Shown one piece after another: positions 58,598 through 60,420 of a stretch of DNA of 64,000 nucleotides. A program made the translations under genes and the position numbers. The notes beneath the pieces were generated by a model. It worked only from the letters and a program-made list of their open reading frames with translations. It was not told where the DNA came from and did not search any database. Within the stretch, counting starts at the first letter, position 1. Each line of letters opens with the position of its first letter. The DNA comes from a phage, in the NCBI GenBank assembly GCA_023802575.1, contig GCA_023802575.1_3947.1; one strand, written 5' to 3'.

Positions 58598-58748
58598 ACT
58601 TAAGAGTCTTCTAAGAGGGTTTTTAAGTGATGTCCGGTAGGGTGAGGTCGGGTTAAGTATTGTCCGGTACGGTAGGGTAAAGTACGGTACGGTAAGGCAA
58701 AGTAGGGTATGGGTAGTTAGTCTCAGCTACATTAAAATGAGACTTACC
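58598..58748. repeat. GT-pentamer repeat module M1: leader, ~16 x GGTNN-type pentamers, terminal hairpin
   Basis: CTTAAGAGTCTTCTAAGAGGGTTTTTAAGTG leader; GTCCG GTAGG GTGAG...; hairpin AGTCTCAGCTACATTAAAATGAGACT. Confidence 0.65.
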
Positions 58749-58749
58749 T

Positions 58750-58880
58750 TTTTAAAAGGTCTTTAAGAGGGTCTTTTAATGAGGTTTCGCTAGGTAGGGT
58801 AGTGTCCGGTTGGGTCTGGTAAGGTCAGGTTAGGTAAAGTGAGGTAAGGGTGGATGGTAGTAGCCACGTTAAAAATCTAC
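58750..58880. repeat. GT-pentamer repeat module M2
   Basis: TTTTAAAAGGTCTTTAAGAGGGTCTTTTAATG leader; GGTNN-rich tract; hairpin GGTAGTAGCCACGTTAAAAATCTACC. Confidence 0.65.
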
Positions 58881-58957
58881 CAAGTTTCTAAAGAGTCTTC
58901 TGTTGAGGGTTCTTTACAAACAACTTAACAACAAACTAAAGTGTGGAGCTAAATGTT

Positions 58958-59545
58958 ATGAAACTGTTAAATATCAAAATCACTGGTACTCGTCCTTTCT
59001 TGAGCCATAACGATACGTTGTCAGACCCATTAAACCCTCTGACAAAATATCACAAGTCTCTGTCCAGTAAACGTAAAAAGACTGACGAAGACTATGCGCT
59101 CTTAGCAGAAAGCCAACTGGTAACTTCTTGTTACTACGATGAGCAGCTTGGTTTTGTTATGAACGGTGAGATGATTGAGGCTTGTATCAAGTCTGGTGCA
59201 AAACTCAACAAACTTGGTAAGGTAATTGACCGAGCCATTATGCTGACAGATGTAGTCTTCCCAATGACTATCAAGAACTGTCCAGCAAACCCACAAGAAC
59301 TTGCTAAGAATCCAGACTTTATCTATGCTAAGTCTGTTAAGATTGGTACAGCACGAGTTATGAGCTACCGTCCAATCTTCCGTGATTGGTCTGTAGAGTT
59401 TGGTTTGATGTTCGATGAAGAACAAATTACCAAAGAAGAACTTCTGATGGTTCTGGAAAATGCTGGTAGCCTTTGTGGTGTAGGTGATTGGCGTCCACGC
59501 TTTGGTCGTTTTTCTGTAGAAGTTATTTCAGAAGGTAACGTTTAA
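58958..59545 (+). CDS. hypothetical protein (~195 aa) flanked by pentamer-repeat modules
   Basis: ORF 58943..59545 with start at second ATG after GTGGAG. Confidence 0.55.
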
Positions 59546-59547
59546 TT

Positions 59548-59988
59548 ATGAATACAAAAGCATTAGCAGCAAAGTTTAGTTACGGTGACACTGTATCACA
59601 CTCTGAGATGGACACCTTCTTAGGTATTGTGAAGCCAACTTATCAAGGTGACATTGTTAAGTACGAAGATGAAATGAAGGCTTATGCGCTTACACGTCTA
59701 AACCGACTTGAGAAGTTTATTGAGAAGCTTCTTAAAGAAGAGAAGATTTATCTGGTTGCTTCAATGGGTGTTGGTTATCGTGTGGTTGAACCTAAGCATC
59801 AAGCAACTATTGCAAAACGTAAAATGTCTGGTAAGATTGGTCGCGCTTTAAAGCAAGCCACTCAAGCGATTGAGAATGTGAACACTATGGCACTTAGCCA
59901 TCAAGAACGCTCACGACTGATTGAACAGCAAAACCATTTAGCTGCTATGAAAGCTAACATTAACAAGCAACGTAGAAAACCTTTCTAA
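59548..59988 (+). CDS. hypothetical protein (146 aa)
   Basis: six-frame ORF; followed by terminator. Confidence 0.55.
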   Translation: MNTKALAAKFSYGDTVSHSEMDTFLGIVKPTYQGDIVKYEDEMKAYALTRLNRLEKFIEKLLKEEKIYLVASMGVGYRVVEPKHQATIAKRKMSGKIGRALKQATQAIENVNTMALSHQERSRLIEQQNHLAAMKANINKQRRKPF

Positions 59989-59999
59989 GTTGACTAGGT

Positions 60000-60022
60000 A
60001 GCCTCTTCGGAGGCTCCTTTTT
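60000..60022 (+). terminator. intrinsic terminator
   Basis: AGCCTC-TTCG-GAGGCT then CCTTTTT. Confidence 0.65.
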
Positions 60023-60160
60023 AAAAGGTCTTTAAGAGGGTCTTTTAATGAGGTTTGGTATGGTCAGGTATGGTCAGGTATGGTGTGGTGTTGTAAGGTT
60101 TGGTGCGGTCAGGTTAGGCTTGGTATGGGTAGTTAATCGGAGCTACATAAAAATCCGATT
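60018..60160. repeat. GT-pentamer repeat module M3
   Basis: same leader as M2; GGTAT GGTCA GGTAT GGTCA GGTAT GGTGT...; hairpin with CATAAAAATCCG loop region. Confidence 0.65.
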
Positions 60161-60164
60161 ACAT

Positions 60165-60300
60165 CACTTAAGAGTCTTCTAAGAGGGTTTTTAAGTGGTG
60201 TTTGGTAGGATAGAGTAAGGTAAGTTAAGGTAGGGTGAGGTCTGGTATGGTAAGGTAATGTATGGGTAGTTAGTCTCAGCTACATTAAAATGAGACTCAC
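60165..60300. repeat. GT-pentamer repeat module M4
   Basis: same leader as M1; GGTNN tract; hairpin AGTCTCAGCTACATTAAAATGAGACT. Confidence 0.65.
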
Positions 60301-60302
60301 AT

Positions 60303-60420
60303 CACTTAAGAGTCTTTAAAAAGGGTTTTTAAGTGTTGTGAGGTGATGTAAGGTCGGGTATGGCTATATCTTGTATGGTTTGGTATGGAAGGATGGCAGT
60401 AGCCTTATAAAAAATCTGCC
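60303..60420. repeat. GT-pentamer repeat module M5 (shorter)
   Basis: related leader; GGTNN tract; hairpin GGCAGTAGCCTTATAAAAAATCTGCC. Confidence 0.55.

Follow-up and report, generated by a model that had tools for sequence, protein, structure and literature searches.

The question addressed here is what function is served by five blocks of degenerate pentamer repeats that bracket two hypothetical genes in a 64,000-nucleotide (nt) stretch of phage DNA (NCBI GenBank assembly GCA_023802575.1, contig GCA_023802575.1_3947.1), the whole of which is referred to below as the window. An initial annotation had proposed that the repeats act as RNA binding a protein that they titrate, as arrays for a DNA-binding factor, or as recombination hotspots around a mobile cassette. 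We conclude with high confidence that a Felix O1-like phage here carries a VIPR (Viral Interference Programmable Repeat) locus, of type II and belonging to the SUSP1 clade.

VIPR is a CRISPR-like system of RNA-guided DNA silencing that was first described in 2026, in two bioRxiv preprints (10.64898/2026.04.26.720920 and 10.64898/2026.04.26.720927). Its protein, Vipr, is a minimal RAMP with a single RRM and is the proposed ancestor of Cas5, Cas6, and Cas7. The guides, named vrRNAs, are built from 9-16 YNNGG repeats and end in a conserved 3' tail; in the SUSP1 clade this tail is a pseudoknot and was seen as such by cryo-electron microscopy (10.64898/2026.04.26.720927). Each repeat is bound by one Vipr protomer, whose pockets take up the flipped-out bases G1, G2, and Y3; the NN dinucleotides are left to pair with the target, skipping every third base of its DNA, and the outcome is an R-loop triplex and transcriptional silencing. 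According to the same two preprints, the vrRNAs expressed by SUSP1, one upstream and three downstream, are approximately 100 nt long and mostly aimed at a satellite phage; the Vap1 protein of the operon boosts protection, and reprogramming of the NN bases redirects silencing. Expression of vrRNAs, their binding by Vipr, and silencing of matching DNA were demonstrated for SUSP1 and P. fulva (10.64898/2026.04.26.720920, 10.64898/2026.04.26.720927).

The system is thus already described, and no new kind of system is added by this locus. What is added is a set of predicted targets for three guides of this phage and an independent check of the skip rule, together with details that were undescribed: a hairpin 5' of each guide, an orphan vrRNA in Felix O1, which lacks vipr, and a two-unit duplication in the third guide. 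VIPR represents a minimal form of RNA-guided DNA recognition, newly reported and proposed to be older than CRISPR, and once the repeats are read as guides, about 700 nt of unannotated DNA and two hypothetical genes can be understood as a defined weapon against a satellite.

Repeat modules and the genes between them

The five modules were found where the initial annotation had placed them, all on the plus strand, to which all coordinates below refer unless otherwise indicated. Modules M1 and M2 (58594-58882) lie upstream and M3-M5 (60016-60421) downstream of two open reading frames, ORF1 (58958-59545) and ORF2 (59548-59988), which are the sole protein genes within the locus. From 5' to 3', each module comprises a leader hairpin of 15-18 bp, a tract of 10-16 phase-locked YNNGG pentamers, and a pseudoknot. 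The 5-nt periodicity was confirmed: at period 5, the spectral power of G in each repeat tract was higher than in any of 2000 shuffles. A sliding scan of the same measure over all 64 kb placed only M1-M4 above the 99.8th percentile, and no comparable signal was obtained from the complementary strand. Period-5 arrays reported by Tandem Repeats Finder in the window were confined to the five modules, and a GGY phase detector returned no array in five shuffled versions of the window. The unit counts of M1-M5 were 16, 13, 15, 13, and 10-11, in place of the 12-16 units given previously. The initial annotation was also right that coding, promoter, and terminator functions do not account for the repeats.

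ORF1 encodes a protein of 195 amino acids (aa) that is identified as Vipr. Its family profile matched PDB entry 36pp_D, 'SUSP1 Vipr protein', over residues 1-189 with an E value of 2e-80, and by tblastn it was 97.4% identical to the product of the SUSP1 vipr gene. The AlphaFold2 model had a pLDDT of 94, and its top 50 Foldseek matches were all Csm3/Cas7 or type VII RAMP chains. The structural preprint (10.64898/2026.04.26.720927) names 13 residues as responsible for holding G1, G2, and Y3 and for clamping the DNA; all 13 (H17, K33, R39, E71, M72, K82, G87, K88, R138, C173, D177, W178, and R179) are identical in ORF1. The ORF1 family has more than 500 relatives, none of which is named or carries a Pfam domain, and its alignment contains RAMP-like motifs, namely an N-terminal ITGT.PLLMH strand, GPYIPG, and a C-terminal glycine-rich loop. 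ORF2 (146 aa) is 99.3% identical to agp038, which comes directly after vipr in SUSP1, and 99-100% identical to the post-vipr gene in SUSP1, wV8, heid, and Mijalis. On the strength of this relationship agp038, and hence ORF2, is taken to be vap1, a putative accessory gene. The ORF2 protein has three database relatives only, almost none outside the clade, and its single-sequence AlphaFold2 model (pLDDT 69) gave winged-helix regulators as the best Foldseek match, with an E value of 0.25. Searches of ORF1 and ORF2 against Pfam and PADLOC gave no match, and those against PHROGs returned 'unknown function' families only.

Once the protein had been identified, a number of candidate explanations for the repeats were dropped: a TRAP-like ring binder, a CsrB-type sponge, a Shine-Dalgarno/30S sponge, pairing to tRNA CCA ends, two-tier G-quadruplexes, a Chi mimic, an R-loop replication origin, and a minus-strand Rho rut site.

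Guide targets and the one-base-skip rule

The DNA of SUSP1 agp017 was used as bait to retrieve the satellite from 5,426 complete E. coli genomes, and extra copies were taken from IMG/VR. The satellite, approximately 12 kb in size, was found in 474 of these genomes; in seven that were fetched, it occupied one of three chromosomal positions, namely the yciI-tonB interval, the lafU-dinB interval, or the interior of a DUF72 gene beside yecN. In E. coli PAR (NZ_CP012379) the satellite is at 1.322-1.334 Mb. Its gene content includes serine recombinases as well as tape-measure and baseplate genes, the latter two being related to the phage's own. The NN bases of each guide were compared with a sample of 23 satellite, phage, and host loci (designated by L numbers), of which the satellite loci total about 440 kb, and 100 shuffles of unit order per guide served as the null.

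Guide vr1 (58633-58712, 16 units, NN code CC AG GA CG TA AT CC AC AG AA AC AC AA AA AG AT) matched 29 of 32 bases in satellite L127 (8688-8734), inside a coding sequence and with each skip at codon position 3; 27 of 32 matched in L179. Guide vr2 (58785-58849, 13 units) matched 23 of 26 bases at intergenic sites in L129 (5317-5354) and L178 (5118-5155), and 22 of 26 in L128. The L129 site is located 85 nt upstream of a helix-turn-helix gene of the satellite. The best match of vr3 (60054-60128, 15 units) was 23 of 30 bases in L130 (6563-6606), on the opposite strand of a coding sequence and again with the skips at the wobble position. The score of each of these three guides was reached by none of its 100 shuffles. 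Since the natural targets of vr1-vr3 lie in an E. coli satellite phage, the locus is read as a weapon of the phage against a parasite or competitor.

The mismatches of vr3 are limited to its three 5' units and its last unit. This guide equals that of L154 (IMG/VR 2706796285) with the addition of a 10-nt duplication, TATGG TCAGG, and the 13-unit L154 version matches 23 of 26 bases at the same L130 site. The three 5' units are out of register with the satellite target because of the two-unit duplication, and vr3 is an example of guide change by repeat slippage.

The skip rule was also examined across the clade, for which 24 loci provided 66 unique modules; two modules with indels were left out of the unit statistics, which refer to 802 units of 64 modules. 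Against the E. coli satellite-phage loci, an NN match of at least 80% was obtained for 41 of 64 guides at a skip of one base, as opposed to 0, 0, and 3 guides at skips of 0, 2, and 3. The published skip rule was therefore reproduced independently on a different sequence sample, and the apparent degeneracy of the pentamers is spacer-like information. No self-target was found in the window, where the best skip-1 scores of 16-21 (about 66-73% NN match) are background.

These matches bear on the suggestion that the modules produce a sponge or decoy RNA, which would titrate a host or phage RNA-binding protein in a 5-nt register, as in the CsrB-CsrA or trp leader-TRAP pairs, and would have no guide function. 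A period-5 motif with structured ends does resemble protein-binding small RNAs, and Felix O1 keeps a promoter-driven module in the absence of vipr and vap, which would be explained if that module were a decoy for a competitor's Vipr. A pure sponge, however, predicts no satellite matches, whereas the NN bases are hypervariable among close relatives and yet match satellite DNA far above chance, at the one-base skip only. In addition, the cassette carries its own gene for the partner protein, a RAMP of the type that binds CRISPR RNA (crRNA). A sponge is accordingly considered very unlikely. Of the earlier proposal of a protein-binding repeat RNA, the strand-specific RNA and the 5-nt protein register are retained and the role as a sponge for a host factor is not; the RNA is instead a guide for ORF1 (Vipr).

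Some E. coli satellite copies contain an 11-unit GGYNN array of their own, L131 at 2684-2741 and L179 at 4061-4123, both on the minus strand; satellite copies carrying their own array are also reported in the 2026 bioRxiv VIPR preprint. A blastn search of module M4 against the 5,426 E. coli genomes gave no match, from which it follows that the guides of the satellites use other leaders and tails.

Repeat code and RNA structure

Among the 802 clade units, the second G (G2) was G in 98% and the first (G1) in 82%, and the third base (Y3) was a pyrimidine in every unit (T in 89%, C in 11%). Each N position had an entropy of 1.87-1.89 bits, which is near-maximal; the NN bases change freely between relatives while GGT and its phase are kept. 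The number of units per module ranged from 9 to 19, and the distance from leader end to tail start was an exact multiple of 5 in 64 of the 66 modules.

The same base frequencies were considered in relation to RNAs that act by self-structure or generic pairing, such as two-tier G-quadruplexes (GG-N3), a Shine-Dalgarno-like sponge for 30S subunits, or GGU pairing to the 3'-ACC ends of tRNAs. The tracts do show GG-N3-GG spacing and motifs of the GAGGU kind, and the phage has 26 tRNA genes. However, conservation of G1 at just 82%, with G2 and the pyrimidine near-invariant, fits the protein pockets of Vipr and not a quadruplex, and neither the linkage to vipr nor the satellite matches would be explained. 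The probability of such an RNA is regarded as close to negligible.

Two leader variants had been noted previously; both are real, and each folds as an RNA hairpin of 15-18 bp with invariant G.U pairs. Type 1 is found in module 1 (58594-58632; about 18 bp with several G.U pairs), module 4 (60162-60200, beginning 1 nt past the vr3 pseudoknot), and module 5 (60300-60338), and type 2 in module 2 (58747-58784) and module 3 (60016-60053). The hairpin spans the gap from one nucleotide past the preceding 3' element up to the first repeat. In 14 distinct type-1 sequences from related phages, the 18-pair helix was 97.6% paired; G.U is invariant at four pairs, one-sided changes that preserve pairing occur at five, and the loop-closing pair is CG or UA. 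Because of the four invariant G.U pairs, the helix exists only in the plus-strand transcript.

The terminal hairpin of the initial annotation proved to be one stem of a larger element, an H-type pseudoknot. Type A, formed by GTAG:CTAC and AGTCTCA:TGAGACT, follows vr1 (58713-58744), vr3 (60129-60160, with the compensatory stem AATCGGA:TCCGATT), and vr4 (60266-60297). Across nine variants of this type, 100% of cells were paired and three pairs were changed on both sides. Type B follows vr2 (58850-58882; type B1, GTGG:CCAC with TGGTAG:CTACCA) and vr5 (60389-60421; type B2, AAGG:CCTT with TGGCAG:CTGCCA), and was 97.5% paired with three compensatory pairs. Rfam covariance models at the gathering threshold identified only tRNAs in the window and had no match at 58.5-60.5 kb, and no tRNA-like gene was found in the modules by ARAGORN.

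Neither VIPR preprint (10.64898/2026.04.26.720920, 10.64898/2026.04.26.720927) describes a 5' inter-guide hairpin. The modules are 125-150 nt long as compared with about 100 nt for the mature SUSP1 vrRNAs, and the leader hairpin may therefore be removed or mark a boundary. We tentatively suggest, as a combined proposal that has a limited chance of being right, that the hairpin is a dedicated boundary element (a processing site, perhaps one for RNase III, that sets the vrRNA 5' end, or a point at which Vipr polymerising 3' to 5' would halt) and that the orphan vrRNA of vipr-less phages such as Felix O1 is functional, either loaded in trans or serving as a decoy against a competitor's Vipr.

The core motif of the leader (GTCTTYTAAGAGGGT-like) was matched 21 times in the window, where 4 matches would be expected; 7 of the 21 fall inside the modules. 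Copies elsewhere include those at 7243-7269, 15303-15317, 15482-15496, 2941-2955, and 3540-3554, in early intergenic or 5' regions on the minus (transcribed) strand. The core may be a general regulatory or processing RNA motif of the phage that is not specific to VIPR.

Transcription and proposed mode of action

A sigma-70-type promoter, TTGACA-16-TATACT (58536-58563; 11 of 12 matches), precedes vr1 and is kept in Felix O1, SUSP1, and Mijalis. A hairpin resembling an intrinsic terminator (60000-60015) and its T run (together 60000-60022) follow vap1, with the T run merging into the leader of module 3, and the next sigma-70-type promoter (60440-60468) marks the end of the locus. In the proposed model, a strong early promoter would drive vr1, vr2, vipr, and vap1, with the three further guides vr3-vr5 following. 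Each module would yield a vrRNA of about 100 nt composed of the YNNGG repeats and the 3' pseudoknot, on which Vipr would polymerise with one protomer per pentamer, flipping GGY into its pockets and presenting the NN dinucleotides for pairing. These bases would then pair with double-stranded DNA, the skipped third base usually being the wobble position of a codon, and the resulting R-loop triplex would block transcription of the target, an effect that Vap1 would be expected to enhance.

Several points weigh against this interpretation of the locus. The downstream array (vr3-vr5) lies 3' of the terminator-like hairpin and has no detectable sigma-70 promoter. Guide vr4 (60201-60265), in which three of the 13 units lack GG, gave a best match of 21 of 26 bases (L177, 5775-5812) that was not above the null, an earlier best of 20 being reached by 14 of 100 shuffles. 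The best match of vr5 was 17 of 22 bases (L129, 4429-4460), also not above the null, as 25 of 100 shuffles reach it. The vr5 tract (60339-60388) has 10 units, or 11 when TGTTG at 60334 is counted, and is partly decayed, one unit being CTATA. Both guides may be obsolete, or they may be aimed at elements outside the roughly 440 kb sampled. Finally, expression, processing, ribonucleoprotein formation, and silencing are predicted for this phage from SUSP1, and both of the papers that describe VIPR are preprints.

Distribution and linkage of the cassette

The phage of the window is Felix O1-like (Felixounavirus), with 252 phage records matching at 80-95% identity and a tRNA cluster that fits this assignment. 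The VIPR region is located between the DNA ligase gene and the early gene block. About 118 Ounavirinae records carry vipr, and in all 118 such records of the phage collection the gene is annotated as hypothetical or left unannotated. The number of modules is one in Felix O1, 1+3 in SUSP1, and 2+3 in Mijalis. Felix O1 has the promoter and one complete module (type-1 leader, 11 units, B2 tail), found at 3500-3630 of L003, which corresponds to approximately 57.7-57.85 kb of NC_005282.1, and at 13761-13803 of L181. No vipr or vap homologue was found in its 86-kb genome, where the best tblastn E value was 0.38. The orphan vrRNA may be left over from a deletion, act as a decoy, or serve as a guide in trans. 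The expectation that the modules and the two genes form one cassette, present or absent as a block, agrees with these results, Felix O1 being without both genes and about 118 relatives having them.

Linkage between repeats and protein was assessed by searching IMG/VR for (GGTNN)x6 alone, without prior knowledge of the system. At least 120 loci were obtained, many of them long degenerate GGYNN arrays in intergenic DNA. When ORF1 was compared with these pattern-selected loci by tblastn, homologues of 20-49% identity were detected in at least 27 contigs from outside the Ounavirinae; ORF2 was detected in Ounavirinae only. Every one of the at least 27 contigs has at least one array co-oriented with the ORF1 homologue, usually adjoining it, and contig L028 additionally has an array on the opposite strand. 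The arrays in the contigs with Vipr homologues range from about 10 to more than 100 units.

Under a DNA-level reading, the G/T-rich arrays would be sites of a replication origin, R-loops, or iterons, or else hotspots of recombination by which the two-gene cassette is mobilised. Consistent with this, the G-rich strand is the non-template strand downstream of a strong promoter, the number of modules varies among relatives (1, 1+3, and 2+3), Felix O1 resembles a leader-1/tail-B2 recombinant that has lost the genes, and short (GGTTA)6 blocks adjoin iterons in the initiator genes of unrelated phages. Set against these points, the leader helix with its invariant wobble pairs exists only as plus-strand RNA, the pseudoknot covaries, and no Vipr-encoding contig of the pattern scan lacks an array in the orientation of its vipr homologue. 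A DNA-level element is therefore judged extremely improbable, and recombination between modules probably follows from their repetitiveness without being their function. The roles as a DNA-binding array or recombination hotspot put forward in the initial annotation were not borne out; the NN positions specify DNA targets in the satellite phage.

Two other groups of loci were noted. Much larger arrays accompany distant Vipr homologues in L041 (2217-3404), L050 (2095-2614), L029 (4602-5047), and L093 (2251-3265), taking the form of 13 tandem guides, about 100 contiguous units, or units split by GGCTAATGG; these are probably other VIPR types of the preprint. A near-identical (GGTTA/GGTAA)x6 block is present in the unrelated IMG/VR contigs L010, L015, L023, L026, L030, L032, L092, and L096, and also in L008, L097, L100, and L111. 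The blocks sit inside open frames of 700-1000 nt beside iteron-like direct repeats and encode VRLGKVRLGK in L010 and L015; the frame in L097 has a DnaB_2 replication-initiation domain (E value 1.6e-6). They are probably internal origins or linkers of initiator genes and not VIPR.

Comparison with known systems

The closest relative is the type II VIPR locus of SUSP1, with which the present locus shares a Vipr of 97% identity, a following gene of 99% identity, the gene order, the promoter, both leader types, both tail types, the YNNGG repeats, and targets in the satellite phage. It differs in having two upstream guides where SUSP1 has one, in its NN codes, in the two-unit duplication of vr3, and in the partial decay of vr5. 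SUSP1 is a Suspvirus, whereas the phage described here is a Felixounavirus.

With the backbone of Class 1 CRISPR-Cas complexes (Cas7/Csm3 on crRNA), VIPR has in common the RAMP fold with its glycine-rich loop and thumb, one protomer per RNA register, periodic base flipping, a structured RNA end as a handle, and arrayed guides directed against mobile elements. The register is 6 nt in those complexes and 5 nt in VIPR, in which three bases are buried and two are read, so that two of every three DNA bases are read. VIPR also differs in lacking a spacer-repeat array, Cas1/Cas2, Cas6, a large subunit, and a nuclease, and in being phage-encoded and silencing its target instead of cutting it. In line with this, the locus contains no array of identical repeats and spacers, and ORF1 and ORF2 gave no cas match in Pfam or PADLOC.

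TRAP bound to the (G/U)AG-NN repeats of the Bacillus trp leader is similar in that an oligomer reads a conserved triplet every 5 nt in single-stranded RNA over 9-16 repeats. It forms a closed ring of unrelated fold, however, its spacers hold no information, and it regulates attenuation and does not target DNA; no TRAP homologue is present. ToxI and the other antitoxin RNA arrays of type III systems are likewise tandem, phage-relevant noncoding units with pseudoknots that are cut to protein-binding monomers, but ToxI units are 36 nt long, have no internal pentamer code, and inhibit a toxin RNase.

Other features of the window

A 48-aa hydrophobic open reading frame (58382-58528; phrog_22006, unknown function) follows the ligase gene and precedes the VIPR promoter; Mijalis has it too, but Felix O1 and SUSP1 lack it. 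On the minus strand, the region 15200-16650 comprises about 1.4 kb of noncoding DNA with dense, short, degenerate direct repeats (CTGTTAAGA, CTTGTTAG, CTTTAAAG, and TATAGAG), in which Tandem Repeats Finder reported many arrays with periods of 10-12, 22, and 31. This region is perhaps an origin, a packaging site, or an array for binding of a regulator. The 26 tRNA genes of the phage form a cluster at 192-5203, also on the minus strand, that is typical of Felix O1-like phages.

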